Positions 3,303-24,339 of a DNA stretch of 64,000 bases are shown one piece after another. How positions within the stretch are numbered: position 1 is the first letter of the stretch; the number at the start of each line of letters is the position of its first letter. The position numbers and the translations under genes were made by a program. The DNA is from an uncultured Gammaproteobacteria bacterium (GTDB lineage Bacteria > Pseudomonadota > Gammaproteobacteria > DRLM01), in NCBI GenBank assembly GCA_963761035.1, contig CAVXFH010000002.1, positions 1,215,017 through 1,279,016 of the forward strand, in the 5' to 3' direction. Below the pieces are notes generated by a model. It made no database searches, was not told the DNA's origin, and saw nothing but the letters and a program-made list of their open reading frames with translations.

Positions 3303-3349
3303 ATCGTTTCTATCCCTCACCCCTACCCCTCTCCCGGCGGGAGAGGGGT
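3303..3349. repeat. REP-like palindromic element (CCCTCTCCC-N-GGGAGAGGG type), copy 1
   Basis: The string CCCTCACCCCTACCCCTCTCCCGGCGGGAGAGGGG is seen directly. Related copies occur at 6858-6990, 18665-18835 and 22962-23115. Confidence 0.6.
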
Positions 3350-3459
3350 TTCTGAATACGCTATTTGCGCGCCCTGGGGAGGTTTTGCAAATGCAGTCGT
3401 TGCTGTCAGCTATGCGGCAAGTCGGTATACTTCCCCTTCGCCTATAGCTTGGAAGTCCC

Positions 3460-5526
3460 ATGTCCAACCTGCTCGCCCAGGAGACCAGTCCCTATTTGTT
3501 GCAGCACGCCGAGAATCCGGTGGCGTGGCATCCCTGGAACGCGGCGGCCCTGGCGGCGGCGCGGCGCGACGACAAGCCGATCCTGCTCTCCATCGGTTAT
3601 TCCGCCTGCCATTGGTGCCATGTCATGGCCCACGAGTCCTTCGAGGATCCGGCTACGGCGGCGGTGATGAACGAGCTGTTCGTCAATATCAAGGTCGATC
3701 GGGAAGAACGCCCCGATCTCGACAAGATCTATCAGCTCGCCCATCAGATTCTCACCGGGCGCGGCGGCGGCTGGCCCTTGACGGTGTTTCTCACGCCCCA
3801 GGATCTGGTGCCCTATTTCGCCGGGACCTATTTTCCCAAGACCGCCCGCTACGGCATGGCGCCGTTCACCGAGGTGTTGCGCCAGGTCGCCGGCTTCTAT
3901 CGCGAGCGGCCCGGCGACATCGCCGAGCAGCACGGCCGCCTGCTGGAGGTCTTGCAGCGTCTCAGCGCCGCGGCGCGCAACGACGCGCCCTTCGATGCCG
4001 CGCCCCTGGATATCGCGCGCAATCAACTGGCCACCAGCTACGACGCCGATCACGGCGGCTTCGGCGCCGCCCCCAAGTTTCCCCATCCCACCCACATCGA
4101 ACGCCTGCTGCACCATTGGGCCTCGACCGCCGCCGCGGGCCATCCCGATCACGGCGCGCTGGACATGGCGCGCACCACCTTGATCAAGATGGCCGACGGC
4201 GGCATCTACGATCAATTGGGCGGCGGGTTCTGCCGCTACGCGGTGGACGCGCAGTGGATGATCCCGCACTTCGAAAAGATGCTCTACGACAACGGCCCGC
4301 TGCTCGCCCTCTATGCCCAGGCGTGGCAGATCGGCGGCGACGCCTTGTTCGAGCGCATCGTCCGGGAAACCGCGGAGTGGGCGATGCGCGACATGCAGTC
4401 GCCGCGGGGCGGCTACTATGCGTCGCTGGATGCGGATTCGGAACATGAGGAAGGCAAGTTCTACGCCTGGACGCCGGAAGAAGTGCGGGCAGTGCTGGAC
4501 GAGGCCGACTATCCCCTGTTCGCCCACCGCTTCGGCCTGGACCGCGAGCCCAATTTCGAGGACAAGTGGCATCTACATGTGTTCCAGGGTTTGCGCGCCC
4601 TGTCCCAGGAATTCTCCCTGCCCATCGACGCCATCATCACCCGCATCGATGCGTCGCGCCGCCGACTGTTCAAGGCGCGGCAGCAACGCGTGCATCCCGG
4701 CCGCGACGAAAAGATTCTCACCGGTTGGAACGGGCTGATGATCAAGGGCATGGCCGTCGCCGGCCGCGTATTGCATGAGCCCGCCTATCTCGCCGCGGCG
4801 GAACGCGCCCTGGATTTCATTCGCTCCACCTTGTGGCAGGACGGCCGTTTGCTGGCCGTCTATAAGGACGGACGCGCGCGCTTCAACGCCTATCTCGACG
4901 ATTACGTGTTCGTCATCGACGCCATCCTCGCGCTGTTGCAGGCGCGCTGGCGCGACGGCGATCTCGATTTCGCCGTCGCCCTGGCCGACGCGGTGCTCGC
5001 GCATTTCGAAGATAAAGACCAGGGCGGCTTCTACTTCACCGCCGACGATCATGAGCCATTGATCCATCGCCCCAAGCCGCTGACCGACGAGGCCACGCCC
5101 TCCGGCAACGGCGTGGCGGCGACGGTGCTGGGGCGCCTGGGCCACATAATGGGCGAGACGCGCTACCTCGATGCGGCGGAGCGCGGTCTGCGCGCGGCGT
5201 GGAGCGCGGTCGCGGAATTGCCCTATGCCCATGATTCGCTGTTGGCCGCCCTGGAGGATCAGCTCTATCCGCCGCAACTGATCGTGGTGCGCGGCGAAGG
5301 GGCCGCGCTTAAAGACTGGCAAGCGCGTATCGACCGCCACTATGCGCCGCGGCGCATCAGCCTCGCCATTCCCAATCACGTTATGCGACTTGCCGGCACC
5401 CTGGGCCACTGCGCGCCGCGCGGCGCGATCTGCGCCTATGTGTGCAGCGGCACCAGTTGTTCGGCGCCGATCACCGAACTCGGCGAACTGGAAACCCGGC
5501 TGGCGGAAACCGAGGCGCGGGCATGA
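3460..5526 (+). CDS. Thioredoxin-domain protein (YyaL/DUF255 family; thioredoxin-like N-terminus plus six-hairpin glycosidase-like domain)
   Basis: 688 aa. N-terminal ...PVAWHPW...[21 protein letters not shown]... motif is typical of COG1331/YyaL. Confidence 0.8.
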
Positions 5527-6848
5527 CGCCTTCTCCTGTTCGCAAATTATCGCCGCGTTCAAGTGCGATGTTGGCGGCGATCACTTTGTTGATGATGATC
5601 GCCTTCCACTCCGCCGGCGCCGCCCCATCGCCAAACCCCTGGCTGCAAACCTCCCCGTTGCTCGCGCCGCGTTCCGGCGCCGGCGTTCTTGAAGTCAACG
5701 GCGTCATCTACGCCATCGCCGGTATCGACGGCAAGCAGTTTCTGCGCAGCAGCGAATACAGCGCCATTCATGACGACGGTACCCTCGCCGCGTGGCGGGC
5801 CGGCAGCGAACTCAATGAAGCGCGCGGCTTCTTCGGCGTGGCGGCTCATGGGGGTTTCCTCTACGCGGTGGGCGGCGGCAACGGTCCCAGCGGTCACCAT
5901 CTGTTGCGCAGCGTGGAACGCGCCGCCGTTCGCGCCGACGGCAGTCTCGGTCCGTGGCGGGAAACGCAACAGCTCAATCTGCCGCGGCGCTGCGCCAAGG
6001 TCGTGGCCTCGGGCGACTATCTTTACGCCATCGGCGGTTTCGGCGGCGCCTTGCTGGATTCCGTGGAACGGGCGCGTTTCAACGGCGACGGCAGTCTCGG
6101 CCCGTGGGAGATGCTCCCGGACAAACTCACCCGGCCCCGCTACATCCACGCCGAGGCGGAAGTGAACGGCCGTCTCTATATTGTGGGCGGGCATGCCGAG
6201 CAGGGCGGCATGGGCGAGGCCGCCGTGGAATTCACCGCGCTGAGCAAGGAGAAGGATCTGTCGTCATGGCACGGCACCGCCGCCCTGATACAGGGACGTT
6301 ACGGTCTGGCCGCGGCCAGCCACGGCGATTACCTCTACGCCCTGGGCGGCATGAGCGGCGCGACCTTCTACGATGTCATCGAAAAAAATCACGTCGACGC
6401 CGACGGCGCGCTGGGCGTATGGCACGACACGACACCGCTCCCCGCGCCGCTGGCGGACCTGGGCGTCGTCGTCTATGGCGATTGGATGTATGTCATAGGC
6501 GGCACCAGCCCCAAGGGGTATTTCAATAGCGTGTACTACGCCCGCATCGACAAGCGCGGCGATCCGGCGCCGGCCGCGGCGGGCAACGCGCCGCGCCGGC
6601 CGCGCCGGTCAACCGCGTGGAACTGCCCAACGGCGGCACGGTCATGCAGTCGCTGGAAGGCGGGACCTATATCTATCTGGAAGTGGATACCGGCGCAGGC
6701 AAGGAGTGGCTGGCCGCCGCCCATGCCGACATCGCGGCGGGCGATCACATCCGCTACAGCGACGGTATCTGGATGCGGGATTTTTTCAGCAAGTACCTGC
6801 AGCGGCGCTTCGCCGCCATCCGTTTCGTGGGTAATCTGGAAAAGGTGA
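5523..6848 (+). CDS. Secreted Kelch-repeat beta-propeller protein. Its 3' part is probably frameshifted (see 6617..6859)
   Basis: Signal peptide, then six repeats of hydrophobic-Y-A-hGG-x-G ([48 protein letters not shown]). The last ~85 aa in this frame are W/S/P-rich nonsense, while the -1 frame looks protein-like. The ATGA overlaps the stop of the upstream gene. Confidence 0.65.
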
Positions 6849-6859
6849 CGGCGGAGTAG
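6617..6859 (+). CDS. Probable displaced C-terminal domain of the Kelch protein (alternative frame), or an independent small ORF
   Basis: The frame starting ...[87 protein letters not shown] has normal composition. It overlaps the nonsense tail of the 5523..6848 frame. Confidence 0.4.
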   Translation: MELPNGGTVMQSLEGGTYIYLEVDTGAGKEWLAAAHADIAAGDHIRYSDGIWMRDFFSKYLQRRFAAIRFVGNLEKVTAE

Positions 6860-6990
6860 TTCTTTGCTTCCCTCTCCCTTCGGGATTTATGCCCTGCAGG
6901 GTAGAGGGATCGAGGGTGAGGGCGCATCGAGGAGAACCAAGCCCCCTCACCCCTGCCCCTCTCCCACAGGGAGAGGGGTGAAACCTTCAA
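6858..6990. repeat. REP-like palindromic elements, two tandem units (copy 2)
   Basis: TTCCCTCTCCCTTCGGGATTTATGCCCTGCAGGGTAGAGGGATCGAGGGTGAGG ... CCCCTCACCCCTGCCCCTCTCCCACAGGGAGAGGGG. The first unit is near-identical to a unit at 18700-18760. Confidence 0.65.
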
Positions 6991-7469
6991 TCGCGGAAGT
7001 TATTGAACTGCAGCGGCAACTCCAACTTCTCCTTGCGCAGCATGGCGATGACCTCCTGCAAGTCGTCGCGCTTCTTGCCCGTCACCCGCACCTTGTCGCC
7101 CTGAATGGCGGCCTGCACCTTGAGCTTGGCGTCCTTGATGCGTTTGACGATGTCCCTCGCCAGCTTGCCCTCCAGGCCCTGGCGCAATATCACCGTCTGC
7201 CGCGCCTGATTAAGCGCGATCTCCGGGTCCTTGGCCTCCAGGCAGGCGATATCCACGCTGCGCCGCGCCAGCTTGTCCTTGAGGATGTCCATCATCTGCT
7301 TCAACTGAAAATCCACTTGGGCGAACAGGGTGATCTCCGCCTCCTTGCGTTCAAAGCGGGCATCGCTGCCCTTGAAGTCGAAACGGGTGGTCACCTCGCG
7401 GTTGGCCTGATCCACCGCGTTGGTCACCTCGTGCATATCCACTTCCGACACTACGTCGAATGATGGCAT
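6987..7469 (-). CDS. yajQ: YajQ family (UPF0234) nucleotide/c-di-GMP-binding protein
   Basis: [26 protein letters not shown]... is the canonical YajQ N-terminus. The ORF-track start at 7571 is an upstream extension. Confidence 0.8.
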
Positions 7470-7661
7470 GATCTTTCCTTCTGACTGCAATTCAGGAGAG
7501 ACTCTACAGAACGGCCTTTTAAGCCGCAAGACTGGATGGACGGAAACCATCGCCAGGCGGATTCCCGACAAAAACGCCGCGTTGTGCGGTTGATAGCGGT
7601 GGGTTTATATTCCCCGTATCATGAATTTTTCATTTTTTAAGGCCGAGGGGAGACCGGATTA

Positions 7662-8903
7662 ATGTGCCTGAGATGGGCGATGGCGGGAGGTGCATTGTTG
7701 CTGGCGGGTTGCGAGACCTTGGATAGCGCCATCAAGACCGCCGATTCGGCGGTCAATGCCGTCAATACCGGCACCGTGAAGAACATCACCCAGATCGCCA
7801 GCAGCCAGGACCCCGCCGCCGTGCTCAGGCAACAGGCCAAGGATCGGGCCGACTATTATAAGCGCCATCCCGGCGCCGTCCTCGACGATGTCAAGGCCGT
7901 GAAGCGCGACTTCGACAAGCTGATGAATTTTCTCCAAGGCAATGTCAGCAAGACCTGGGGCGGCAAGGAGGTCAAGGTGCCGACGCGGACCCAGTACGTC
8001 AAGTACACGCAAAACTACATGAGCCGCGCGGTGGTGGATTTCGACAAGGGCGAGGTGATGGTGGAGACGCTCGACGAGCGCGATCCCAAGGGCAGCCTCG
8101 TCAATGCCATCGTGACCACCTTGTTGACGCCGGACGACCCGCGCGCCGTGGACCTGTTCAGCGACAAGGGCATCACGTTGACCGGCGACAAAGACCCCTA
8201 TTTGAAGGGCCTGGTGGTGGACGGCAACGGCCGCAACGTCGATACGCCGGCCGCCGCCGAGGCCTACGCGAAATCCCTCGCCGATACGTCGGCCAAGCGC
8301 CGCGACATCGACGTGAACGGCGGCAGCAAGAATGCCCTGTACGTCACCATCCCCATGGTCAGCAACTTCAACAACAAGCAGGCGCAGAAATACAGCGCCG
8401 CGGTGAACAAATACGCCGCCCGGCACAACATCAGCCCCAGTCTGGTTTACGCCGTAATCCGTACCGAGAGTAATTTCAATCCTTACGCGGTCAGCGCGGC
8501 GCCCGCCTATGGCCTGATGCAATTGGTCCCGACCAGCGGCGGACGCGACGCCTACCGTAAGGTGACCGGCTCGGACGGCGTCCCCAGCAAGGAATACCTG
8601 TTCGATGCCGACAACAACATCGAACTCGGCACCGCCTACCTGAATATACTGGCCTTCAATCAACTCGACGCGGTGAGCAGCGAGGTGTCTCGCGAGTATT
8701 GCATGATCTCGGCATACAACACCGGCACCGGCAATGTCCTGAAAGTATTTTCAAGCAACCGCAGCGAGGCCATCAATACCATCAACCGCAGCGACCCCGC
8801 CAAGGTTTATAACAAACTCCGCGCCGAATTGCCCTATCAGGAAACCCGCGACTATTTGAAAAAAGTCGTCGATTACCGCAAAGAATTCGTAAGTGTAAAC
8901 TGA
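7662..8903 (+). CDS. mltC: Membrane-bound lytic murein transglycosylase C-like lipoprotein
   Basis: Lipobox LLLAGC. C-terminal SLT domain motif AVIRTESNFNPYAVSAAPAYGLMQLVPTSGGRDAY. N-terminal DUF3393-like region. Confidence 0.8.
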   Translation: MCLRWAMAGGALLLAGCETLDSAIKTADSAVNAVNTGTVKNITQIASSQDPAAVLRQQAKDRADYYKRHPGAVLDDVKAVKRDFDKLMNFLQGNVSKTWGGKEVKVPTRTQYVKYTQNYMSRAVVDFDKGEVMVETLDERDPKGSLVNAIVTTLLTPDDPRAVDLFSDKGITLTGDKDPYLKGLVVDGNGRNVDTPAAAEAYAKSLADTSAKRRDIDVNGGSKNALYVTIPMVSNFNNKQAQKYSAAVNKYAARHNISPSLVYAVIRTESNFNPYAVSAAPAYGLMQLVPTSGGRDAYRKVTGSDGVPSKEYLFDADNNIELGTAYLNILAFNQLDAVSSEVSREYCMISAYNTGTGNVLKVFSSNRSEAINTINRSDPAKVYNKLRAELPYQETRDYLKKVVDYRKEFVSVN

Positions 8904-9139
8904 CCGGGAAAACGCTGAATCGCGCGGCATCGCGTTACCGGCTAAGGTAAATCCACTAAGATGAACCCGGGCGCGGAACGGGAGAGCCGCGCGGCGATCA
9001 AGGCGGTGTACGCCAGCCGGGCGATTGTGCCGCTATTATGCAAGTTCAGGGGATGCGCCATGGGGCAATGTCCATATGCACATGAGCGCCACGCGAGCAA
9101 CGCGCACACCAAAATTTTTAGCTTCGGGGATATTACGCC

Positions 9140-9661
9140 GTGGACGAACATCAGAGTCTCAAATTAATCTTGGCCGTTCTCATTTTCATCGCCCGCCTCG
9201 GCGATATCGGATCCACCTATCTGGTCTCGCCCAAATTGACGCTCGAATCCAACCCGGTGGTGCGGCGCCTGAGATGGCCGTATGCCGGCCTGACGACGCT
9301 GGTGTGCATCCTCCCCTATTGGTCCCTGGGCGCGGGTATCGTGGTGCTGGTGGCCTCGTTGCTGGTATCCGCCTCGAACAGCAGCAAGATCTGGCTGGCC
9401 CGCGCCATGGGCGAAACGGAATACCTGGCGATGATGCTGCGCATGGCGGCGCGCGCCCAGCCGGGGCCCAGCCTCGTCTTCTCCCTGATGCCCGCCTTGT
9501 TCATGGCCATACTGGCGGCGGCGGTGATGCTCTTTTACCCCAACCCCGATACCGATCTCGGCTATTACGTGGGCCTGGGCATCCTGGGTTATGCGCTGGT
9601 CGTCGCAATTTACGGTCCCACGACCTTTCTGCGGTACCGCAAGGCGGGCCGCTCCGCCTAG
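9140..9661 (+). CDS. Hypothetical polytopic membrane protein
   Basis: 173-aa ORF with 4-5 hydrophobic helices. No recognisable motif. Confidence 0.45.
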   Translation: MDEHQSLKLILAVLIFIARLGDIGSTYLVSPKLTLESNPVVRRLRWPYAGLTTLVCILPYWSLGAGIVVLVASLLVSASNSSKIWLARAMGETEYLAMMLRMAARAQPGPSLVFSLMPALFMAILAAAVMLFYPNPDTDLGYYVGLGILGYALVVAIYGPTTFLRYRKAGRSA

Positions 9662-9706
9662 CCGGGCGAGGGCGTGCCTTAAGCACATAGAATAAGAGAC
9701 CTTGAC

Positions 9707-10159
9707 GTGAAAATACGTATTCTCGCCGCGGTGCTTCTCTTTGCAGGCTATGCCTTCGCCGGCAATCAATACGCCGCGACCTTAAGCGTAGACCCCGCCG
9801 TCTCATCCGGACAAAGCGCCCGCGCATCCGATGCCGTCATCGCCAATGCCTTCGCCAACCATGAAAGTCATCTTCAGGTTCACGGACAAGGTATCGTCAT
9901 GCGGTTGTTAGCGGAAGATGACAGCGGCAGCAGGCATCAAAGATTCATCGTTAGGCTGGCCTCCGGACAAACCCTGTTAATTGCCCATAATATCGACCTT
10001 GCTCCCAGGATCGACTCGCTGCGCGTGGGCGATTTCATCCAGTTCTACGGTGAATATCTATGGAATGAAAAAGGCGGCCTCATCCATTGGACCCATCGGG
10101 ATCCAGCCGGCGCGCACGCGGCCGGCTGGCTGCAACATCAAGGTAAGCGTTACCAGTGA
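9707..10159 (+). CDS. DUF3465 family secreted protein
   Basis: Signal peptide. Motif GSRHQRFIVRLASGQTLLIAHNIDLAPRI recalled from the DUF3465 family. Confidence 0.6.
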   Translation: MKIRILAAVLLFAGYAFAGNQYAATLSVDPAVSSGQSARASDAVIANAFANHESHLQVHGQGIVMRLLAEDDSGSRHQRFIVRLASGQTLLIAHNIDLAPRIDSLRVGDFIQFYGEYLWNEKGGLIHWTHRDPAGAHAAGWLQHQGKRYQ

Positions 10160-10242
10160 CCGATTCCCGCGAGTCATCCAAGTTCGCGGCATGCCGTATA
10201 ATTCCGCGTTGGGACCTACACTAACCGGCCGGAGTCTACATC

Positions 10243-10962
10243 ATGAAAAAGAACGGTCATGAATGCGCCGTTTGCAAGAAGGTCTATGCTCCTGCCGATG
10301 TACTCTCCGCGCATCTGGTGAGAGATTCCATCGACGCGCTTATCCGACACGACCACCCGGACTGGTCCGATGAGAGTTATATCTGCCGCTCCGATCTGGC
10401 CGTCTATCGCACCAAATACGTACATTCGCTCCTGGAGTCGGACAAGGGCGAACTCTCGAATCTCGAGAAAGATGTATTGGACAGCCTGCAAAAGCATGAA
10501 CTCATCTCATCGAATATAGACGATGCCTTCGAGCGCGACCGCAGCCTTGGCGAAAGACTGGCGGACCGGCTCGCCGCGTTTGGCGGCAGCTGGTCGTTTC
10601 TCATCATTTTCGGCCTGTTTTTGCTCGTCTGGATCATAATGAACAGCATGGTGTTGTTTTGGCGGCCGATCGATCCTTACCCTTACATATTTCTGAACCT
10701 GATCCTGTCCTGCCTCGCCGCCATTCAGGCCCCCGTCATCATGATGAGCCAGAACCGCCAGGAGGTAAAAGACCGCCGGCGCGCCGAGCATGACTATAAA
10801 GTGAACCTCAAGGCGGAGTTGGAGATCAGGCAAATCCATGAGAAATTGGACCATCTCCTGAACAAACAATGGGAGAGGCTGGTGCAGATACAGGAGATCC
10901 AGATCGAACAATTATCCGAGATCAACGAACTGAAAAATCGCCCGGCAAGACACTCCCCCTGA
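10243..10962 (+). CDS. DUF1003 domain membrane protein
   Basis: FGGSWSFLIIFGLFLLVWIIMN core followed by a coiled-coil tail, as in DUF1003. Confidence 0.6.
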   Translation: MKKNGHECAVCKKVYAPADVLSAHLVRDSIDALIRHDHPDWSDESYICRSDLAVYRTKYVHSLLESDKGELSNLEKDVLDSLQKHELISSNIDDAFERDRSLGERLADRLAAFGGSWSFLIIFGLFLLVWIIMNSMVLFWRPIDPYPYIFLNLILSCLAAIQAPVIMMSQNRQEVKDRRRAEHDYKVNLKAELEIRQIHEKLDHLLNKQWERLVQIQEIQIEQLSEINELKNRPARHSP

Positions 10963-11247
10963 CGATTACTCCTCTATGCTCCATAGGAGCGGGAATGTGT
11001 AGTTGTTGATAATCCGGCGGGTCTGCAGAATGCCTTCGGTCAAATGCGGTCTCAATCTGACAGGATAAATCGTGCGGCAGGGGATGCTCAATGGTCCCTC
11101 TGGCACGCGCCGCGCCAATTAATAGGGGATCGGCGGCGAAAGCTGTCGCCACCATGACAATCGCGGTAAAATCAGGGGGTCGATTTTAAATAGCCCGTTA
11201 GTCGCGCGCTTATTTTTTCTTATTTGAATCCGAGCGGGAGAAAGAAC

Positions 11248-11703
11248 ATGAAGGACACTAAAAATCGCGTCGCCATCGATGCGCTCAATCGCATCATGGA
11301 GCTGGAATTGGCGGGCGTGGTGCGCTACACGCACTATTCTCTCATGGTTTTTGGTTACAACCGCATCCCTATTGTTGCCTGGCTCAAGGCCAATGGGCAG
11401 GAAAGCCTTGATCATGCCCATAAGGCAGGTGAACTGGTGACCTTGCTTGGCGGTCATCCTTCTTTAAAGATCGGCGCTTTGCTTGAAACGGAGAATCACA
11501 ACATCGGCGACATTTTGCGGGAAAGCCTTGAGCATGAGAAAGCGGCGCTCGCCGCGTATTATGAACTCTTGAAGATTGCCGAGGGCCATTCCGTCCTGCT
11601 TGAGGAATATGCCCGAGACATGATCGTTGCGGAAGAATTGCATCTTGATGAGGTGAACAAGATGCTGCGCAATCCCGGAGCGATCGAGCCGTTCAAAGAG
11701 TGA
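11248..11703 (+). CDS. bfr: Bacterioferritin-like ferritin-fold protein
   Basis: MKDTKNRVAIDALN start. Diiron ligand pattern ExxH (ESLDHAH) and EELHLDE. The ORF-track start at 11224 is probably an extension. Confidence 0.6.
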   Translation: MKDTKNRVAIDALNRIMELELAGVVRYTHYSLMVFGYNRIPIVAWLKANGQESLDHAHKAGELVTLLGGHPSLKIGALLETENHNIGDILRESLEHEKAALAAYYELLKIAEGHSVLLEEYARDMIVAEELHLDEVNKMLRNPGAIEPFKE

Positions 11704-11959
11704 GTGTCTCGCGATGCCCGGCATGTAATCCAACTAGCCTAAGCGGGCGGCGCGCACTCGCTTAATCGGTGATTGCGGCCGCTGCCGTTAATATGCCGGT
11801 GGTCGCTTCGAGGCGGTGATCTCAAGCCTGACTCACCGCAAATTATCATCCGCGAATTCTACAACCGCGCTCTTATCGGTCCGTCTATCCCGGCACTTTC
11901 ACTTATACGGCAAATGACTGAAAATAGCCTCCCCTAGTCCGCAAGAGTAAAACCCTCCC

Positions 11960-16285: not shown

Positions 16286-16304
16286 AGTTACCTCTTTATG
16301 ATGG

Positions 16305-16802
16305 TTACAGCGCCGCCAGGGCCTTTTCGTAATTGGGCTCCTGGGCGATCTCCGGCACCAGTTCCGTGTACCCCACCCGGTTATCCGCATCGACGACCAC
16401 TACCGCCCGCGCCGTAATACCGGCCAAGGGGCCGTCCTGAATCAGCACGCCGTAATCCCTGGCGAAGTCGTGCGAGCGCATCATGGACAGGGTAACGACA
16501 TTGGCGATGCCTTCCGCTTTGCAGAAGCGGCCTTGAGCGAAGGGCAGGTCCGCGGAGACGGTGAGGATCACCACATCGTCGCGGCCCTTGGCATAGTCGT
16601 TGAACTTCTTGGTGGAGATGGCGCATACCGAGGTGTCGAGGCTGGGTACGATGTTCAATAACTTTTTCTTGCCCTTGTACGTTCCGAGTTTGACATCGTT
16701 GAGATCCTTGTCCACCAAATGGAAGTCCGGCGCGGGGCTGCCGACCGCGGGAAGATTGCCGTTGGTGTGGATCGCATTGCCTTTGAGCGTAATCGTCGCC
16801 AT
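16305..16802 (-). CDS. tpx: Thiol peroxidase (atypical 2-Cys peroxiredoxin)
   Basis: [15 protein letters not shown]...[18 protein letters not shown]... is the canonical Tpx sequence. The gene sits between gcvPA and gcvPB. Confidence 0.85.
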
Positions 16803-16835
16803 GGTGTGCTCCTTTCAGAGGGTGATCAACAACCG

Positions 16836-18194
16836 TTATTGTTTCAGTATAGCGTCCAGCCGGGTCGCGTAAGCATCGAGATCGGCCTCGGTCTTGATCT
16901 CGGTGGCGCATACCAGCAGCGCCTCGCCCAGTTCCGGATAATCTTCCCGAAGGCTATATCCGCCCACGATGCCCTGCGCCGCCAGCGCCTCCAGCACGGG
17001 TGCAACGGGGCGATTGAGGCGCAACACCGCCTCATGAAATACGGGGCGGGTAAAGACGCGGGACACTCCGGGTAGCGCGGTAAGCTTCTCTACCAGGCGC
17101 ACGGTATTGGCATGGCTGGCCGCCGCCACCCGCTCCAGTCCGTCCGCGCCCAGCAGCGCCATATAGATGGTAGCGGCGGTAACCGCCAGGCCCTGGTTGG
17201 TACAGATGTTGGACGTCGCCTTGGAACGGCGGATGTGTTGCTCGCGGGCCTGCAAGGTCAGGGTGAAACCCGGTTTGCCGTCGCGGTCCAAGGTGCGGCC
17301 GACGATGCGCCCCGGCATCTGCCGCACCCAATCCCGCTTGCAGCACATGAAACCGAAATACGGTCCGCCGGAAGACAGCGGAATACCCAAGGGCTGGCCT
17401 TCGCCGCACACGATATCCGCGCCGCTCTGTCCCCATTCGCCCGGCGCCTTCAGCAAGGCCAAGGACACGGGATTCACCGCCGCGATTGCCAGCATCCCAT
17501 GTTCATGGGCCCAATCGCACAGGGTATCCGCATCCTCCATCACCCCGAAAAAATTGGGCTGAGGGATGACCAGCGCCGCGAAGTCTTCGCCCTCGAAACG
17601 CGCCAGGGATTTGGGGACGGTATCGCCGCACTCTCCGCAATAGGGCAAGTCCACCAACTCGATGCCTTGATTGTGCACCACGGCATGCACCACCTTGCGA
17701 TAGACGGGATGTACCGTGGCCGGCATGAGAATGCGCTTGGATTTGGAATGGCGGTTGGCGCGCACCGCCATCAACACCGCCTCGGCCAAGGCGGAGGCGC
17801 CGTCGTAGAGCGAGGCATTGGACACATCCATGCCGGTGAGGCCGGCCATCATCGTCTGGTATTCATAGAGCACCTGCAAGGTGCCTTGGCTGGCCTCGGC
17901 CTGATACGGCGTATACGCGGTGTAAAATTCGCCGCGGGTGGTGATCTCCCATACCGCGGCGGGAATGTGGTGCTGATAGGCGCCGGCCCCGGCGAAGCAC
18001 AGGGCGTTACCGTCCCGGGCGGCCCGTTCGGCCATCAGGCGCGCGACCTCCATTTCGGAAAGACCGGCGGGCACCTGCTTGAGGGTACTCCTCAGCGCCG
18101 CGGGGATTTCATCGAACAGATCCTCAATGCGCGCCGCGCCAACGGCGGCCAGCATGTCGCGGACTTCTTGTTCAGTGTGCGGAATAAACGGCAT
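16836..18194 (-). CDS. gcvPA: Glycine dehydrogenase (decarboxylating) subunit 1
   Basis: [19 protein letters not shown]... is the canonical N-terminal-half P-protein sequence. Confidence 0.85.
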
Positions 18195-18236
18195 GACGCT
18201 ACTCTTTAGAAATGCCTCCCCACGCTGCGGGCTGTA

Positions 18237-18632
18237 TCAATGTTCTTCGCTCTCGACCTGCGCCCGGTAACCGTCGGCGTCCAGCAGCGCATCCACCTCG
18301 GCCATGGCGGCGGGTCTGATGCGCATCATCCAGCCTGCGCCGAAGGGTTCCTTGTTCACCAGCTCCGGACTGTCGCTGATAGCCTCGTTCACCGCCACCA
18401 CTTCGCCGGCTAGCGGGCTGTAGACGTCGGAGGCGGCCTTCACCGATTCCACCACGGCGCATTCCTCGCCGGCCTTGAGCCGGCGTCCCGGTTCGGGCAG
18501 TTCGACGAACACCATGTCGCCCAATAGATCCTGGGCATGGTCGGTGATGCCCACGGTAACGGTGCCGTCGCCTTCGCGCCGCACCCATTCGTGACTCTTG
18601 GTGTATTTCAGCTCGGCTGGAATCGTGCTCAT
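18237..18632 (-). CDS. gcvH: Glycine cleavage system H protein (lipoyl carrier)
   Basis: ...[41 protein letters not shown]..., with the lipoyl-lysine in ESVKAAS. Confidence 0.85.
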
Positions 18633-18664
18633 CTGATTGCCCTTTATCAATGGATATAACTAAC

Positions 18665-18835
18665 ATCCCTCATCCCAACCCTTCTCCCGGAGGGAGAAGG
18701 GCTTTTTCTTCCCTCTCCCTCCGGGATTTATGCCCTTCAGGGTAGAGGGATAGAGGGTGAGGCAACTCTACCTAAATCTTTTCACCTACTCTCCCTCTTC
18801 CTTCGGGAGAGGGATGCATGGTTTACCACAAAGCT
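18665..18835. repeat. REP-like palindromic elements, about 3 units (copy 3), in the gcvH-gcvT spacer
   Basis: CCCTCATCCCAACCCTTCTCCCGGAGGGAGAAGGGC ... TTCCCTCTCCCTCCGGGATTTATGCCCTTCAGGGTAGAGGGATAGAGGGTGAGG ... CTCTCCCTCTTCCTTCGGGAGAGGGAT. Confidence 0.65.
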
Positions 18836-18865
18836 TAGAAATGTTCGTACGCCCGCATCACCCAA

Positions 18866-19957
18866 TCAAATCTCCACACAAACCTTGCCGTTGCGCACGA
18901 AGGGCGGTTTCACCACCTTGACGTCCACCGGTTTGCCGCGCATCTCCACCTGGCACACCGCGCCCGGGTCGGTATTCACCCGCGCCAGGGCGATGGCCCG
19001 TCCCAGCGTCGGCGAAAAACTGCCGCTGGTGATCTCGCCGATCACTTCGCCATGGACCATGATCTTTTGATGATTGCGCAACACGCCCTTGTCCAACAGC
19101 ACCAGGCCGATGAAACGCGCCACATCCGGTTTAGCGCGCTGCGCATCGAGCACGGCGCGGCCGATGAAGCCGCGATCCGCCGGTTCCCAGCCGACCGTCC
19201 ACGTCAGCCCCGATTCCAGGGGCGTGGTGGTCTCGTCCATGTCGGCGCCGTAGAGATTCATGCCCGCCTCCAGGCGCAAGGTATCGCGCGCGCCCAAACC
19301 GGCGGGCTTGACGCCGGCCGCCGCGAATGACCGCCATACCTCCGCCGCCCGGGTCGCGGGCACCATCAATTCATAACCGTCTTCGCCGGTATAGCCGGTG
19401 CGGGCGATGAAGATATCGCCTGCCGTCGCGAAGGTAAACGGCGCCTGCAAGGCCGCGGCGGGACCGGCCACTTCGCCGAGGGCGATATGGACCTTGTCGC
19501 GGGCATGCGGTCCTTGCACCGCGATCATGGCGAGATCGCGCCGTTCTTGCACCGTCACGGCGAAGGGTGAGGCATGGCGCCGGATCCACGCCAGGTCTTT
19601 GTCCCGGGTGGCGGCATTGACCACCAGGCGGAACTCGCGCTCGCCGCGGAAATAGATAATGAGATCGTCGATGACCCCGCCCTGTTCGTTGAGCATGCAG
19701 GTGTAGAGCGCCTTGCCCGGCGTCTTCAATTTATCGACATTGTTGGCGGCGAGATAGCGTAGGAATTCCCGGGTCCGTTCGCCCTTGAGATCGACGATGG
19801 TCATGTGAGAGACATCGAACATGCCGGCATCGCCGCGTACCGCGTGATGCTCGTCGAGCTGCGAGCCGTAATGCAAGGGCATGTCCCAGCCGCCGAAGTC
19901 CACCATCTTGGCGCCGGCGGTCAAATGGGTGGCATAGAGCGGCGTACGATTAGCCAT
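18866..19957 (-). CDS. gcvT: Glycine cleavage system T protein (aminomethyltransferase)
   Basis: [41 protein letters not shown]... is canonical. Confidence 0.85.
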
Positions 19958-20034
19958 GGCGGCTCACCCGCGCCGACGCAACTGGCATGATGGTTTGCAT
20001 TTTAGTATCGGCCATCGGCTCCCCCCGCATCCGT

Positions 20035-20245
20035 AAATAAAAAGGGCAACGCCGCGACGCGGCATTGCCCCTCTGTCCGGCTACCTGAGAGCTTTTAGCA
20101 CCTTCGGTGGGCCGCGTGCATAAGCGGCCTCTCTCCAGAGTCAACGTCCCGCTGCGGTCCTTTTGCCTGAGCGATTCCGGGCTGGTTGCGCCTTCGGCGC
20201 CCCGCGGCTGGCGCAGGGTCTCTCCCGCGGGAGACAAGGTTGAAG
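20035..20245 (-). promoter_or_regulatory. Tandem glycine riboswitch with terminator expression platform, leader of the gcvT operon
   Basis: Minus strand carries two aptamer cores, each with a GGAGAG / CTCTGGAGAGA element, CGCCGAAGGCGCAA or CACCGAAGGTGC, and CTCAGGCAAAAGGAC or CTCTCAGGTAGCCGGACAG. These are followed by a GC hairpin (GGGCAATGCCGCGTCGCGGCGTTGCCC) and a T-run immediately upstream of gcvT. Confidence 0.8.
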
Positions 20246-20339
20246 CGACACACTATACCGGGGAGTAAGGTGGAAACCAAGGGCCTTGGAAACGTCTCGG
20301 CATCCATAATCCTAATGCGGTAATGTGCGCGTCGCTACC

Positions 20340-21566
20340 TCATTTGCGCGCCAGCACCCTGCCGATGGTAAGCCCCTGGACGATGATGGAAAAGGCCACC
20401 ACCGCGTAGGTGATGGGGACGATGAGGCTGCGGTCATAACCGGCGGGCAGGGACAAGGCCAGGGCCACCGATACCCCGCCGCGCAGTCCGCCCCAGGTCA
20501 GGATCTTCACCGCGTTGGCGCTATAGTCCTGTACCCGGCGCAACAAGCCCAAGGGCAGGCCGACGCTGACGAAACGCGCCAGCAACACGATGGGGATGGC
20601 CACCAGGCTGGCGATGAGATGCTTCATGGTATAGATCACGACGAAGACTTCCAGGCCGATCAATACGAACAACACGGCATTGAGGATTTCATCCACCAGC
20701 TCCCAAAAGATATCCAGGTGATGGCGGGTGTCTTCGGACATGGCGAAGGTCCGGCCGTGATTGCCGATGAGCAGGCCCGCTATTACCATGGCGATGGGCG
20801 CGGAGACCTGCAAGTCTTCGGCCAGGGCGTAACCGCCGGAAACCAGCGCCAGGGTAATCATAATCGCCACGGGATTATCATCCACACCCAGCAGCAGCCA
20901 AATGGCGGCCGTGCCTATCACTACGCCAAACACCACCCCGCCCAGCGCTTGCTGGGCGAACATCGTCGCCACCTCACTGGCCGTGATATGTGCGCCGCCG
21001 GTGGCAATACCGATCAATACCAGGAACATCACCACCGCCACCCCGTCGTTAAACAAGGACTCGCCGGCGATCTGCATCTCCAGACTCTTGGGGGTATTGA
21101 TACGCTTGAGGATGGACAACACGGCGATGGGATCGGTGGGCGAGATCAGCGCGCCGAAGATCAGGCAGTAAAGAAACGACAGATGGATATCCAGGGCGTT
21201 AAATATCCACCACGACAAACCGCCGATGATAAAGGTGGACAAGATCACCCCGACGGTGGCGAGCAATAATATCGTCCAGCGCTGCTTGGCCAGTTCATAG
21301 AGATTGATGTGCAGCGCCCCGGAGAACAACAGGAACCCCAGCATGCCGTGCAAGACGGTCTGGTTGAAGTTGATGCTGCTCAATAAACGCGCGGCATAAT
21401 CCTCCAAGGTATAACCCAGGGCGTCCGCGGCCTCCAGGGAAAATTCAAGCACCACCGCCATCACGATCAATCCGACGCTGTCGGGCAACCTGATGAAGCG
21501 GTTATTCACGTAGCTGAATATCGCCGCCAAGACCAGCAGGATGGCGATGGTATGAAATAGGCTCAT
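20340..21566 (-). CDS. Na+/H+ antiporter, CPA1 (NhaP-type)
   Basis: About 12 TM helices. ...LFNDGVAVV... and ...GGLRGGVSVALALSLP... are CPA1 hallmarks. Start chosen at MSLFHTIAIL. Confidence 0.75.
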   Translation of the reverse strand: MSLFHTIAILLVLAAIFSYVNNRFIRLPDSVGLIVMAVVLEFSLEAADALGYTLEDYAARLLSSINFNQTVLHGMLGFLLFSGALHINLYELAKQRWTILLLATVGVILSTFIIGGLSWWIFNALDIHLSFLYCLIFGALISPTDPIAVLSILKRINTPKSLEMQIAGESLFNDGVAVVMFLVLIGIATGGAHITASEVATMFAQQALGGVVFGVVIGTAAIWLLLGVDDNPVAIMITLALVSGGYALAEDLQVSAPIAMVIAGLLIGNHGRTFAMSEDTRHHLDIFWELVDEILNAVLFVLIGLEVFVVIYTMKHLIASLVAIPIVLLARFVSVGLPLGLLRRVQDYSANAVKILTWGGLRGGVSVALALSLPAGYDRSLIVPITYAVVAFSIIVQGLTIGRVLARK

Positions 21567-21743
21567 GCACCAACTTTCATCGTTGTGTCTCGTATGCCTC
21601 AAGTCTAAACGGAAAACGTTATGTCAGCGAAGATCGGAAAGGCTGGGAGCGATGCGACCGCTATGCGCCCGATCGCGTACATGGTTATTGGCAAAGCCCT
21701 TTGCAGTCGACCGTGGTGATTAGACTGCTTCAGACTAAATTGT

Positions 21744-22958
21744 TCACGGCGCCGTGTACCGCGCCAAGGCGGGCAGATCGCCCGTCCGTCCCATGGCATG
21801 ACGCATGATGAGCTGCTTGACGGGCGGTATCCTGTTGGTGAACGATAAGCCCGCGTTGCGCGCCCGGCGCAGCGGTTCCCAGTCGGCGCCGAACAGGCGT
21901 TTGAAGCCGTCCATGGCGGCCATCATCATGAGATTGTGCCCCTTGCGCCACCGTTCGTAACGGCGCAACGCCTTGAGCGAAGCGATATCCTTTCCCTGCT
22001 CATGGGCGTCCGCCAACACCTCAGCCAGGGTCGCGGCGTCGAGGATGCCGAGGTTGACGCCCTGCCCCGCCAAAGGGTGCACGGTGTGGGCGGCATCGCC
22101 GATCAAGGCCAATCCCGGTTGCACATAGCGGTCAACATATTGCAGACGCAAAGGCAAGGATGCCCGCTCGCCAACGGACTCGATGCGGCCCAGGGTCGCG
22201 CCGAAGGCCGATTCCAATTCGCGGCAAAACAGCGTGTCGTCCGCCATCAGTAACTGCCGCGCCTGCCGCGGGGACGTGGACCAGACGATGGAACTGCGGC
22301 CGTCATGCAAGGGAAGAAAGGCCACGGGGCCGGCGGTCAGAAAGCGTTGCCAGGCGGTCTCGCGATGACTGTGTTCGCTGGCCACCGTCGCCACTACCGC
22401 CTGTTGATCGTAGGTCCAGCCGCGGGCCTGAATACCGGCGAATTGCCGCACCCGTGATTGGGCGCCGTCCGCGCCCACCAGCAGGCGCGTGCGCAAGGTG
22501 TTGCCATTCGCCAGGCTCACGTGCATCTCAGCGCCGGCGCGTTGCAGCGCCGCCACGGCGGCGGGACAAAACAGCTCGATCCCGCCCTCGCCTTGCAGGC
22601 GCTGCCACAGCGCGTGTTGTATCACGCGATTCTCGATAATATGCCCTAAGGCATCTTCGCCCACCTCGGCGACATCGAAGTGAATAAAACCGTCGCCGCC
22701 GGCATCCCAGACATGCATCTCGCGAAAGGGGCTGATGCGCCGCGCCGACATACCCGACCATGCGCCGAGGGCGGTGAATATCTGCTGCGAGGCGCGGGTG
22801 ATGGCGGAGACGCGCAGGTCGATGGGGTCATCCGGACGGACATCCGGCGGCAACGCGGTTTCGATCAAGGCGACCTTCATCCCGCTGCCTTGCAGGGCGC
22901 ACGCCAGGGTAGCGCCCGCCATGCCGCCGCCGACGATGATGACGTCAAATCTATCCAC
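21744..22958 (-). CDS. ubiI: UbiH/UbiF/UbiI(VisC)-family FAD-dependent ubiquinone biosynthesis hydroxylase
   Basis: FDVIIVGGGMAGATLACAL Rossmann motif. Downstream of ubiH, as visC is in E. coli. GTG start with a GGAGA RBS. Confidence 0.7.
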   Translation of the reverse strand: MDRFDVIIVGGGMAGATLACALQGSGMKVALIETALPPDVRPDDPIDLRVSAITRASQQIFTALGAWSGMSARRISPFREMHVWDAGGDGFIHFDVAEVGEDALGHIIENRVIQHALWQRLQGEGGIELFCPAAVAALQRAGAEMHVSLANGNTLRTRLLVGADGAQSRVRQFAGIQARGWTYDQQAVVATVASEHSHRETAWQRFLTAGPVAFLPLHDGRSSIVWSTSPRQARQLLMADDTLFCRELESAFGATLGRIESVGERASLPLRLQYVDRYVQPGLALIGDAAHTVHPLAGQGVNLGILDAATLAEVLADAHEQGKDIASLKALRRYERWRKGHNLMMMAAMDGFKRLFGADWEPLRRARNAGLSFTNRIPPVKQLIMRHAMGRTGDLPALARYTAP

Positions 22959-24339
22959 GCTTTACCATCTCCCCCTCTCCCTCCGGGAGAGGGCTGAGGT
23001 GAGGGGATTTAGCACGAGGAATCTGCTCGGATGAACGCGTACCGTAGAAAACGGAATTCATTTCCCCATCTCCCTCATCCGGCTCTTCGGGCCACCTTCT
23101 CCCGAATGGGGGAAGGATGAGTGGCAGTCCCCGCGCCAAGCGCGGCAACTTGCCCGCCAATCCCATGGTGTGGCGGGTCAATATATGTTTCAAGGGCGGC
23201 AACAGATCCACGGCCAGCATGCCGGCATTGCGCAACACGCGCACCGGCGACAAGGGGTTGGCGAAGAACCGCGCCAGGCCGTCGGTGAAAGCGATCATCT
23301 TGCTATGATCGCGGCGGCGCCAAGCGGCATAGGTCTGCAACACCTCGAGATCGCCGATGTCCTTGCCGGCGTCGGCGGCATCGCTCAACACCTCGGCGAG
23401 CACCGCCACATCGCGCAGGCCGAGATTGAAACCTTGTCCCGCGACAGGGTGCAAGGTATGGGCGGCGTTTCCGATCAACGCCAAGCGCGGCCTGACGTGT
23501 TCGCGGGCGCGCACCAACTGCAGGGGATAGGCGCGGCGTTTGCCGAGTCGCAGGAAGGTACCCAGGCGGGTACCGAAGCGCGCTTGCAGGGCTTGCAGAA
23601 ACGCCGCCTCATCCAACGCCATCATCTGCTCGGCTTGGTCGCCGCGCACCGTCCACACTACCGAGCAGCGATTATCGCTCATGGGCAACAAGGCCAGGGG
23701 ACCGCTGTCGGTGAAACGTTCGAAGGCGCAATGGCGGTGCGGACGTTGCGGGGTGATATTGGTAATCACCGCGGTCTGGCCATAATCCCAGCGCCGGGTA
23801 TCGATGCCGAACCATTCACGCACTTGCGAGGCGGCGCCGTCCGCCGCCACCACCAAGCGAGTGGTCAAACGGCTCGCGACACCCGCGCAATCCATCGCCA
23901 CCACCCCGTGATCGCCGCCGCCGGACACCTGGGTAACGACGGCGGGACACAGCAAGGTCACAGTGGAAAGCTGCCGCAAACGCGCCGCCAGCGCCGCGCC
24001 CATGGCGCGGCTCACCGCCACGTATCCCAGTGCCGCCACACCTGCGTCGCGGTAATCCAGGCGGGTGAAACCGAAGCGGCCGCGATCGGAAATATGAATG
24101 GATTGAATCGGCGTTGCATCCGATTGCAAGGCCTCCCACAAGCCCATGCCTTCGAAGATACGCCGCGTGCCGTAGGCGAGCGCGATGGCGCGATCGTCGT
24201 AACTGGGCTGGTCGTCGGAGCGAAACGGCACCGCTTCCAGCACCGCGATGCGCAAGGGTGTGGCGCTCAAGGCGATGGCGAGGCTGGCGCCTACCATGCC
24301 GCCGCCCACAATGATTACGTCATAATCCGTATCAGCCAC
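22951..24339 (-). CDS. ubiH: 2-octaprenyl-6-methoxyphenol hydroxylase-like FAD monooxygenase, with a ~55-aa C-terminal extension encoded by a REP-like repeat
   Basis: MADTDYDVIIVGGGMVGASLAIAL. The pepP-ubiH-ubiI order is conserved. The ORF reads through repeat copy 4, giving ...PPFGRRWPEEPDEGDGE...SPLPEGEGEMVKRG. Confidence 0.7.
   Translation of the reverse strand: MADTDYDVIIVGGGMVGASLAIALSATPLRIAVLEAVPFRSDDQPSYDDRAIALAYGTRRIFEGMGLWEALQSDATPIQSIHISDRGRFGFTRLDYRDAGVAALGYVAVSRAMGAALAARLRQLSTVTLLCPAVVTQVSGGGDHGVVAMDCAGVASRLTTRLVVAADGAASQVREWFGIDTRRWDYGQTAVITNITPQRPHRHCAFERFTDSGPLALLPMSDNRCSVVWTVRGDQAEQMMALDEAAFLQALQARFGTRLGTFLRLGKRRAYPLQLVRAREHVRPRLALIGNAAHTLHPVAGQGFNLGLRDVAVLAEVLSDAADAGKDIGDLEVLQTYAAWRRRDHSKMIAFTDGLARFFANPLSPVRVLRNAGMLAVDLLPPLKHILTRHTMGLAGKLPRLARGLPLILPPFGRRWPEEPDEGDGEMNSVFYGTRSSEQIPRAKSPHLSPLPEGEGEMVKRG
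22962..23115. repeat. REP-like palindromic elements (copy 4) at the ubiH/ubiI junction
   Basis: CTCCCCCTCTCCCTCCGGGAGAGGGCTGAGGTGAGGGG ... CCCCATCTCCCTCATCCGGCTCTTCGGGCCACCTTCTCCCGAATGGGGGAAGGATGAG. Confidence 0.6.

Follow-up and report, generated by a model that had tools for sequence, protein, structure and literature searches.

Triplex-motif repeats of the BoxC/PIT/TMECO type in an uncultured gammaproteobacterium and their physical association with DUF559 nuclease genes

What are the short palindromic repeats that lie in clusters within a 64,000-nt stretch of the genome of an uncultured gammaproteobacterium (contig CAVXFH010000002.1, positions 1,215,017 to 1,279,016; hereafter the window), and by what means do such elements spread? 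A preliminary description of this DNA took them for a genome-specific family resembling the repetitive extragenic palindromic (REP) sequences. We find that the four repeat loci of the window are clusters of triplex motif (TM) repeats of the BoxC/PIT/TMECO type, a known and widespread family, and that repeats of this family show a strong, apparently unreported, physical association with genes encoding DUF559 proteins. The window elements are new members of the known family, including an apparently undescribed nested variant. BoxC/PIT/TMECO repeats have been known for three decades, from hundreds of genomes; published studies reported for them neither promoter or terminator activity, nor a triplex in vivo, nor an associated mobile-element gene, and we regard the DUF559 association as the result most worth following up. 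The window represents 64 kb of the source genome, and what we say about repeats in the source organism is limited to that stretch.

The pattern CCCTCTCCC-N3-8-GGGAGAGGG has three exact matches in the window and none in 100 shuffles of it, and the repeat family was confirmed at the four loci where it had been described. Allowing up to one mismatch, the 9-mer occurs 36 times against 15.5 ± 3.7 expected, concentrated in these loci (3312-3349, 6863-6979, 18665-18816 and 22959-23116), which carry hairpins of the form CCCTCTCCC-N3-GGGAGAGGG, each flanked by an arm CCCTCACCC/GGGTGAGGG. A dedicated hairpin scan of the 64 kb placed such hairpins only at the four loci, all within the first 23 kb. A repeat finder delimited a 36-37-nt core, [CCCTCAYCC]-N4-[CCYTCTCCC]-N3-[GGGAGARGG], in four copies, three of which (3312-3348, 6942-6979 and 18665-18701) share one orientation, with the fourth (22972-23008) in the opposite one. 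The near-identical 54-nt unit that had been noticed at two of the loci is also real: its copies at 6868-6921 and 18709-18762 differ at three degenerate positions, and the repeat finder extended the unit to 59 nt, at 93% identity between the two copies. Repeat finder, hairpin scan and folding together revealed short imperfect palindromes in mosaic intergenic clusters, in which solitary units and two inverted doublets stand beside decayed copies and members of a subfamily with a nested hairpin. A complete TM unit comprises a 9-11-bp pyrimidine/purine hairpin (CCCTCTCCC-N3-GGGAGAGGG), a loop of 2-4 nt and a G-rich third arm, GGGTGAGGG, which is the mirror image of the purine arm. In the following list Y, R and rc stand for pyrimidine arm, purine arm and reverse complement, and triads are the base triads allowed in a triplex.

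3312-3349, minus strand: TM-1, complete triplex motif; Y arm CCCTCTCCC at 3339-3347 (rc), R arm GGGAGAGGG at 3327-3335 (rc), 4-nt loop GTAG, third arm GGGTGAGGG at 3314-3322 (rc); 0 mismatches to the TMECO pattern, 9/9 triads.
6868-6922, plus strand: L-1, long unit, a triplex motif with a nested 18-nt insertion; Y arm CCCTCTCCCT at 6870-6879, insert ATTTATGCCCTGCAGGGT at 6885-6902, inner hairpin GGG-ATTTATG-CCC at 6882-6894, R arm AGGG-T-AGAGGG at 6898-6908, third arm GGGTGAGGG at 6914-6922.
6944-6979, minus strand: TM-2, complete triplex motif; 9/9 triads; 21 nt from L-1 and 8 nt before the stop codon of yajQ (DUF520).
18665-18701, minus strand: TM-3, complete triplex motif; Y arm CCTTCTCCC, R arm GGGAGAAGG, third arm GGATGAGGG; 9/9 triads.
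18709-18762, plus strand: L-2, long unit, right half of a doublet with TM-3; nested insertion at 18726-18743.
18781-18816, minus strand: degenerate copy; hairpin CCCTCTTCC-TTC-GGGAGAGGG at 18793-18813 with one stem mismatch; third arm decayed.
22959-23008, plus strand: TM-4; CCCTCTCCC-TCC-GGGAGAGGG-CTG-AGGTGAGGG at 22973-23005; 8/9 triads.
23066-23116, no strand assigned: degenerate element; hairpin at 23095-23116 with one stem mismatch; poor third arm; translated in the tail of a ubiH-like gene.

Folding, computed with Watson-Crick pairs only, predicts an 11-bp hairpin for TM-1 (-22.3 kcal/mol, z -3.05). This unit is placed between a degraded intI, which ends ~30 nt before it, and a DsbH-like gene 110 nt further on. 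L-1 begins 4 nt past the stop codon (6857-6859) of the upstream plus-strand open reading frame (ORF) and forms a doublet with TM-2; the third arms of the two units face each other and pair as a Watson-Crick stem, and the predicted structure has three hairpins (-69 to -72 kcal/mol, z -4.4 to -5.6). In the spacer between gcvT and gcvH, TM-3 and L-2 make up the left and right halves of an inverted doublet of 97 nt; 7 nt (CTTTTTC) separate them, the third arms are distal, and the predicted fold is a three-way junction (-57.2 kcal/mol, z -5.1). Pairing between the two third arms is a feature of the doublet folds.

Far from being genome-specific, these units match the published definition of a family found in many bacteria. 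BoxC was first reported in a paper on the sequence of envM (Bergler 1992), PIT elements by Hoyne & Maher (2000, 2002), and the TMECO pattern, 5'-CCCTCNCCC-N3-6-GGGNGAGGG-N3-GGGNGAGGG with one mismatched triplet allowed, by Holder et al. (2015, PMC4666352), who counted 3610 copies across 262 proteobacterial genomes, 23 of them in E. coli K-12. TMECO elements are intergenic and often form inverted pairs, their loci are hypervariable between strains, and for the E. coli sequence alone a single-stranded DNA triplex was demonstrated in vitro by circular dichroism and nuclear magnetic resonance (PMC4666352). Against the TMECO pattern the window copies show 0, 0, 1 and 3 mismatches: none at 3314-3347 and 6944-6977 if the second loop is taken as 4 nt (or as 2 nt in a shifted register), one at 22973-23005 with a 3-nt loop, and three at 18667-18700, all belonging to one compensated triplet change. 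When the third arm was checked for G*G:C, A*A:T and T*A:T triads, three window copies scored 9/9 and the fourth 8/9. Matches of 36 nt at 86-92% identity to the window elements are present in 596 E. coli genomes (the K-12 copy reads CCCTCGCCCCTCTGGGGAGAGGGTTAGGGTGAGGG), the composite motif occurs in at least 120 IMG/VR (viral or prophage) contigs, and the same hairpin, CCCTCTCCCXX(X)GGGAGAGGG, was recorded 100 times in Enterobacter sp. 638 (PMC2869309). As single-stranded DNA, the G-rich strand of the window units is likewise predicted to be able to form a hairpin plus a purine-motif triple helix.

How such repeats spread is a separate question, and here a gene that recurs beside them offers a lead. 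ORFs with such hairpins on both sides were collected from all fetched loci and clustered across loci. Only two clusters were common to different loci; one consisted of near-identical copies of one relative's locus, and the other, from three unrelated contigs, matched Pfam DUF559 at E 1e-32 to 1e-41. The fetched loci hold eight DUF559 genes, most of which directly adjoin a repeat. Searching IMG/VR with a DUF559 profile provided a sample independent of the repeats, with 17 loci of which 14 were new; hairpins of the CCCTCTCCC/GGGAGAGGG type lie 30-180 nt from the gene in 8 of the 14 new loci and in 11/11 closer relatives, usually on both sides, inverted and with the third arms distal, against a background of just four hairpins in ~37 kb of distal flank. 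The gene is bracketed by inverted repeats in loci L288, L289, L293, L295 and L287, in L243, L284, L163 and L063, and in L305 and L307. Moreover, repeats extend into the gene itself: among 120 database DUF559 homologues with 55-79% identity to the query, 59 have C-terminal tails encoded by a repeat, compared with 0/120 GcvT controls. The tails are of the types ...SPLPxGEGQGEG and ...PHPNPLPEGEG, together with a long-unit tail, FPLPQGFMPFRVEGQGEG. Some C-terminal tails (P0132 and P0150) carry a larger insertion inside the repeat (SPLPEGGEAEIGKGRVDLFPAERAHFVLMCPGGNNQGEG), which hints at additional nested elements in the triplex motif.

A relative of the window organism with 82% GcvT identity (GCA_037381915.1, the Spart_199 metagenome-assembled genome, MAG, and the closest related one) brings these elements together at one locus: cysK is followed by four TM modules, one of them nested, a DUF559 gene with a TM fused to its 3' end, and an exonuclease gene. 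This locus recurs in L243, L280, L284 and L307. In E. coli K-12, ycjD is the only DUF559 gene, and a TMECO element lies 168 nt downstream, in the spacer to fabI (the old envM); the bracketing of ycjD is only partial, with the downstream copy alone. Between ycjD and that TMECO element (L286, 3241-3407) we also noticed a second, truncated DUF559 3' end (…METVLENIRQGLNRPS…), suggesting a past duplication or recombination at the cassette end. Four distinct DUF559 paralogues (P0222, P0223, P0224 and P0240) most likely share one 220,444-nt ENA contig; the gene is therefore multi-copy in some genomes, unlike the single cysK-linked locus of the window's clade.

DUF559 has a Vsr-related PD-(D/E)XK nuclease fold, YcjD having been related to Vsr by profile comparison in the literature, and it is nuclease-like by its match to PDB 3HRL at E 3e-30 to 5e-36. 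Our profile matches to Vsr itself (1CW0, E 0.36) and to I-Bth0305I (3R3P, E 0.064) fall short of significance and carry no weight here. The TMECO paper contains no occurrence of 'DUF559', 'ycjD' or 'endonuclease' (PMC4666352), and literature searches judged by title and abstract returned nothing that links DUF559 or ycjD to the repeats, which is not proof of novelty.

The third arm speaks to what kind of structure is kept in these elements. Hairpins were selected across all fetched DNA by their perfect 9-bp pyrimidine/purine arms, and the 3' flank was then inspected. A third arm with 9/9 allowed triads follows 184 of the 302 perfect hairpins, compared with 3 of 1510 random control draws. For 113 hairpins the purine arm is not its own mirror image, so that mirror and direct copies can be told apart; the third arm is a perfect mirror in 59 of them and a perfect direct copy in 5, across 12 distinct arm sequences. 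TM-3 of the window belongs to the non-self-mirror set that supports a mirror copy, with one position altered in all three blocks, a triple compensatory change. Processes based on replication yield direct or inverted repeats, not mirror repeats; selection for the potential to form a triplex is therefore the best explanation of the mirror pattern.

Next, orthologous sites in relatives give a view of turnover. The best named or cultured match to the GcvT of the window organism is that of Thiohalophilus (~66%), and the syntenic relatives of the window organism share 82-99% GcvT identity with it; a look-up of the exact GcvT sequence returned no entry, and the nearest relatives are L166, a 2.2-kb contig with a 99% identical GcvT, and L224, with 93% DNA identity. 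Among these relatives the length of the gcvT-gcvH spacer varies between 74 nt, where it holds one hairpin, and 335 nt, as follows.

L166 (GcvT 99% identical): same spacer as in the window.
L177: a single plain hairpin in 74 nt.
L181: free of elements, 138 nt long.
L167: a single TM together with a hairpin in decay.
L170: two TMs in tandem.
L176 and L259: a TM and an insert-free doublet, in the opposite orientation to the window's relative to gcvT.

At the position homologous to the degenerate copy 18781-18816, relatives L167, L170 and L176 have a complete motif, and the degenerate element at 23066-23116 is missing from L170, L173 and L181. The gcvPA-tpx spacer is empty in the window (~45 nt) and spans ~280 nt in L259, with three modules including a long unit. 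By contrast with this variation, the doublet of locus 2 is conserved whole in L224, with a point change in the nested loop, and was inherited vertically there (flanking DNA 93% identical). Elements are thus gained, lost, inverted and modified by nested insertion, yet are able to persist for long. Copies of the 97-nt doublet (window 18666-18762) are found at 95% identity in L145 (6526-6621), at 92% in L160 (4454-4547) and at 88% in L259. In L145 and L160, which are MAGs of the Hydrogenophilaceae type, the doublet stands at a non-gcv locus with no other nucleotide-level match to the window, implying horizontal spread or very strong constraint.

The nested variant is part of this turnover. In the 54-nt unit, the purine arm of a triplex motif has received an 18-nt insert, ATTTATGCCCTKCAGGGT, which lengthens the hairpin by a GGG-N7-CCC mini-stem; alignment against insert-free doublets gives a clean 18-nt indel, and in L176 and L259 the 97-nt doublet (TM, 7 nt, TM) of the gcvT-gcvH spacer is without the 18 nt. 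A genome scan returned 48 long-unit copies in ~9 MAGs (Chromatiales, other Gammaproteobacteria, Hydrogenophilaceae and a Betaproteobacteria MAG), related MAGs holding a dozen or more each and the two richest 16-21, and a loop-free pattern found 105 copies in metagenomes, with the loops ATTTATG (40) and ACGTGTG (41). In all, the subfamily counts ~150 copies with two loop types in gamma- and betaproteobacterial MAGs and metagenomes. No long unit was found in IMG/VR viral contigs, a match in a 'Firmicutes' MAG (L124) lies inside a GntR-type gene and was set aside as chance, and literature searches with long-unit strings gave nothing relevant, which again is not proof of novelty. The near-identity of the two window copies had been read as a sign of recent spread or gene conversion. 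This is not supported: they are 94% alike, and match a copy in L218 at 96% and one in a Hydrogenophilaceae MAG at 95%. Copies no closer to each other than to those on unrelated contigs need not reflect recent intragenomic spread.

Some long units have further company. In many copies (L121, L127, L134, L144, L164 from MAG CAZKZP01, and L259 at 3930-3960) the module TTATTAACCCGGCGACAAAATAGATCT(GGTGTACTGT) precedes the long unit, and L127 also has its inverted partner (…CGCCGGGTTAATA); the mosaics therefore hold at least one more repeat type, possibly with terminal inverted repeats of its own. In L131 (Betaproteobacteria MAG JACRAU01, ~1308-1331) a divergent long unit stands directly upstream of an ORF starting MLIIVTYDVSTETR, cas2-like in appearance. 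The nested loop CATAAAT was considered as a -10/-35 promoter upstream of DUF559 and dropped, since the spacing is unfit and the second loop type lacks it.

We think it probable that TM repeats are non-autonomous elements tied to the DUF559 nuclease, and that the window doublets are gene-less, REPIN-like cassettes. In a full cassette, as seen in other genomes and in the closest related MAG, units in inverted orientation bracket the gene for the small DUF559 protein, and one unit is fused to the 3' end of the gene. The window doublet 18665-18762, with TM(-), 7 nt and long unit(+) and the third arms distal, corresponds to the L243 cassette, TM(-), gene and long unit(+), minus the gene, and gene-less doublets would relate to DUF559 cassettes as REPINs do to RAYT (REP-associated tyrosine transposase) genes. 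Such gene-less inverted doublets are present in the window at 18665-18762 and 6868-6979, the former also elsewhere in L145, L160 and L259. The DUF559 nuclease would recognise or nick the folded repeat, the hairpin or triplex being the structure recognised, and so may drive copying or conversion; effects on neighbouring genes, as RNA hairpins or ORF extensions, would be by-products.

A broader proposal we put forward more tentatively, as a possibility: BoxC/PIT/TM repeats at large may be the partners of DUF559 proteins (YcjD-type, Vsr-like), forming a second repeat-plus-nuclease system independent of RAYT, in which the hairpin or triplex is recognised and the nested hairpin marks a spreading gamma- and betaproteobacterial sub-lineage. 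If true, this would account for the origin and spread of a repeat family known since 1992. Mirror covariation, turnover at orthologous sites and the DUF559 association make the question testable, and ycjD brings it within reach in E. coli.

Several observations weigh against a DUF559-driven spread. The link rests on physical adjacency between gene and repeat, from which we infer the enzymatic one, and adjacency could also arise if the repeats came first and served a selfish DUF559 gene as homing sites. The 64-kb window holds no DUF559 gene, its linkage in the source genome being read from relatives, and 6 of the 17 DUF559 loci, those of the most distant, lowest-GC homologues, have no such hairpins. 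Comparison of the filled (L259) and empty (window) gcvPA-tpx spacers, at ~83% background identity, shows no recognisable target-site duplication. Holder et al. saw neither in vivo triplex protection by dimethyl sulphate footprinting nor an association with mobile elements (PMC4666352). A hairpin has long been kept upstream of gcvH (8/9 lineages), and a repeat in frame in ubiH (4 lineages), which also fits a host function. Finally, the loci behind the covariation were partly fetched with the canonical motif; the non-canonical arms among them are incidental and may include related copies.

The first of these points belongs to a fuller rival reading. In it, the repeats are structural and have no dedicated enzyme, as the published view has it, and spread only by recombination, gene conversion and horizontal transfer; TMs would persist and vary since their non-B DNA structure stalls replication or repair, and a selfish homing-type DUF559 gene would use the TM as its insertion site. 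We judge this rather unlikely. It draws on the tie between TM loci and local variability reported by Holder et al., who found no transposase (PMC4666352), on a fold that DUF559 has in common with a mobile-intron homing endonuclease (3R3P, a weak sequence match at E 0.064), on the presence of several DUF559 copies on some contigs, such as the 220-kb contig described above, and on a doublet that is inverted between relatives, as recombination of its inverted arms would give. However, the cysK-DUF559-exonuclease locus is conserved in five contigs or MAGs of the window's clade and resembles a vertically kept single-copy gene, which argues somewhat against homing. The 97-nt doublet, 95% identical in L145 at a non-gcv locus, is hard to obtain by recombination alone, and about half of the 120 diverse DUF559 homologues have a repeat overlapping the 3' end of the gene, which also speaks against this reading.

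A different reading places the role of the repeats in RNA, as terminators or attenuators, or as REP-like stabilisers of mRNA 3' ends that tune operons (gcvT versus gcvH-P, ubiH versus ubiI). Their gene context, mapped with Pfam and Rfam, has features in its favour. Locus 2 lies between a convergent Kelch-repeat ORF (plus strand) and yajQ (minus strand). The minus strand carries, in this order, the glycine riboswitch, gcvT, locus 3, gcvH, gcvPA, tpx and gcvPB; further along, pepP and a ubiH-like gene are followed by locus 4 and then a ubiI-like gene. It had been claimed that all copies sit at gene 3' ends or in intra-operon spacers. Loci 1-3 are intergenic or in intra-operon spacers; locus 4 is not intergenic, being read in frame within a 3' extension that the ubiH-like ORF has both here and in three relatives. 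The doublets have very stable predicted folds (-57 to -72 kcal/mol, z -4.4 to -5.6), the hairpin is kept in the gcvT-gcvH spacer in 8/9 related lineages, and the Enterobacter 638 genome paper presumed that such hairpins end transcription (PMC2869309).

We nevertheless consider an RNA-level role quite unlikely as the explanation of the family. A check for GC-rich hairpins followed by a T-run found only 18679-18701, on the plus strand and antisense to the gcv operon, and an intrinsic-terminator role was rejected as a general explanation; the effect on gcv operon polarity put forward in the preliminary description is not supported. The window repeats run both with and against transcription, and 69 co-directional cases split ~39:30, figures that come from crude ORF calls (92/208 repeats lie in spurious long ORFs) and are weak evidence of no strand bias only. 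Hoyne & Maher reportedly saw no promoter or terminator activity of the E. coli elements. Also, the conserved mirror third arm would have no part to play in a hairpin of RNA, in which triplexes of the purine motif do not form. At Rfam gathering thresholds the window yielded only 6S RNA and the tandem glycine riboswitch, with no match at the repeats, and it contains no tRNA genes.

Locus 4 illustrates how repeats can reshape a coding sequence. The ubiH-like ORF (24339 to 22951, minus strand) reads through the locus, and its TAG stop overlaps the GTG start (22958) of the ubiI-like gene (GTGGATAG). TM-4 is in frame in the C-terminal extension in the window and in L170 (5727-7043), L173 (5703-7037) and L181 (2720-4054); the extension of 34-58 residues, with tails ...LARGLPL-x-NPPHPNPLPKGEGEQVKRG*, is conserved in the four lineages, and the window tail has ~25 additional codons from the second, decayed repeat. 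The stems are stop-free in every frame on the C-rich strand that encodes ubiH, and read-through is therefore expected from composition alone. Stop-free repeats on the C-rich strand lengthen ORFs, here ubiH and about half of the DUF559 homologues examined, and thereby affect gene annotation. More speculatively, the purine arm of TM-4, which lies 8-20 nt upstream of the ubiI-like start, could supply or mask a ribosome-binding site.

Other features of the neighbourhood are given here for completeness. The tandem glycine riboswitch upstream of gcvT (20063-20237, minus strand) has two aptamers scoring 63.8 and 45.9 bits, and a 6S RNA gene lies at 27169-27355 (plus strand, 86 bits). The order gcvTHP - ubiI/ubiH - pepP - UPF0149 - ssrS mirrors that of E. 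coli. The integron-type intI at 2444-3281 (plus strand) is degraded, with a frameshift near 3100 and an internal shortening: far too little sequence separates the RDGKG...QVRQ region from a later motif, as if part of the gene had been deleted. In 1-2000, the place expected for cassettes, G+C drops to 0.51. The repeat copy at 3312-3349 was considered as an attC or integron recombination site and rejected, since it lies 3' of intI and is without a GTTRRRY core. The Kelch-repeat ORF (5442-6859, plus strand) apparently switches frame near 6600; the frame ending at 6848 has an implausible tail and a high-GC3 frame runs 6617-6859, which could reflect a frameshift, a sequencing error or two genes, and the choice of frame sets the start of the repeat at 4 or 15 nt after the stop codon. 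At 28856-28981 (plus strand), an 18-nt tandem periodicity with five overlapping copies encodes a lysine/alanine-rich, histone-H1-like small protein (MATKKKATSKKKSAAKKKVAVKKK...).

The suggestion that this is a classical REP family, or one of the BIME mosaics, mobilised by a RAYT can now be set beside these data. The repeats are short, GC-rich, imperfect and dispersed palindromes, they form mosaic clusters with inverted doublets at gene ends and in operon spacers, and to that extent the likeness holds; the long unit even contains a GTAG. That tetranucleotide is, however, solely inside the stem, and no conserved GTAG or GTGG flanks the hairpin in the four complete units, whose flanks are CCCTCAYCC-N4 and variable sequence. 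The RAYT gene that the preliminary description proposed to look for was not found in the window or in 2.09 Mb of repeat-bearing loci: with E. coli RayT as the query, tblastn returned no match better than E 0.39 (divergent RAYT groups could escape BLAST), and none of 40 window ORFs has a Y1_Tnp domain in Pfam. The genes that the repeats do bracket are DUF559, not RAYT. Membership of the REP/RAYT system is highly improbable.

How, then, do the window repeats compare with known systems? With BoxC/PIT/TMECO they share the three-block architecture, a near-equal sequence and the class II layout (Y, R, third arm), as well as an intergenic or spacer position at three of the four loci, no strand bias, frequent inverted pairs and loci hypervariable between relatives. 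They differ in their uncultured gammaproteobacterial host, in a second loop of 4 nt (or 2 in a shifted register) rather than 3, in the one copy inside an ORF, and in the subfamily with an 18-nt nested hairpin. The Enterobacter sp. 638 repeats have the identical hairpin and stand in duplicate or triplicate at gene 3' ends; the account given there presumed transcription termination and noted neither a third arm nor a link to an enzyme (PMC2869309). Miniature inverted-repeat transposable elements (MITEs) resemble the composite in their inverted termini (CCCTCAYCC ... GGGTGAGGG) and in presence or absence from site to site. The window units are far shorter than typical MITEs and come with no visible target-site duplication and no insertion-sequence-type transposase. 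As for nesting, Elhai reportedly described in 2008 small dispersed repeats in cyanobacteria in which, likewise, a very small unit sits inside another repeat.

On the enzyme side, Vsr, EDxHD-type homing endonucleases (I-Bth0305I, 3R3P) and 3HRL have their nuclease fold in common with DUF559. The closest parallel in organisation is to the REP/REPIN-RAYT systems of E. coli and Pseudomonas, in which short palindromes and inverted doublets are likewise dispersed intergenically, and a small nuclease gene is itself bracketed by inverted repeats and kept at a conserved locus. Unlike in those systems, the partner of the TM repeats would be a Vsr-like PD-(D/E)XK protein, DUF559, instead of an HUH/Y1 transposase, with mobilisation by DUF559 a step that we infer, and the repeats themselves have, in place of a GTAG guide tetranucleotide, a third, mirror arm.

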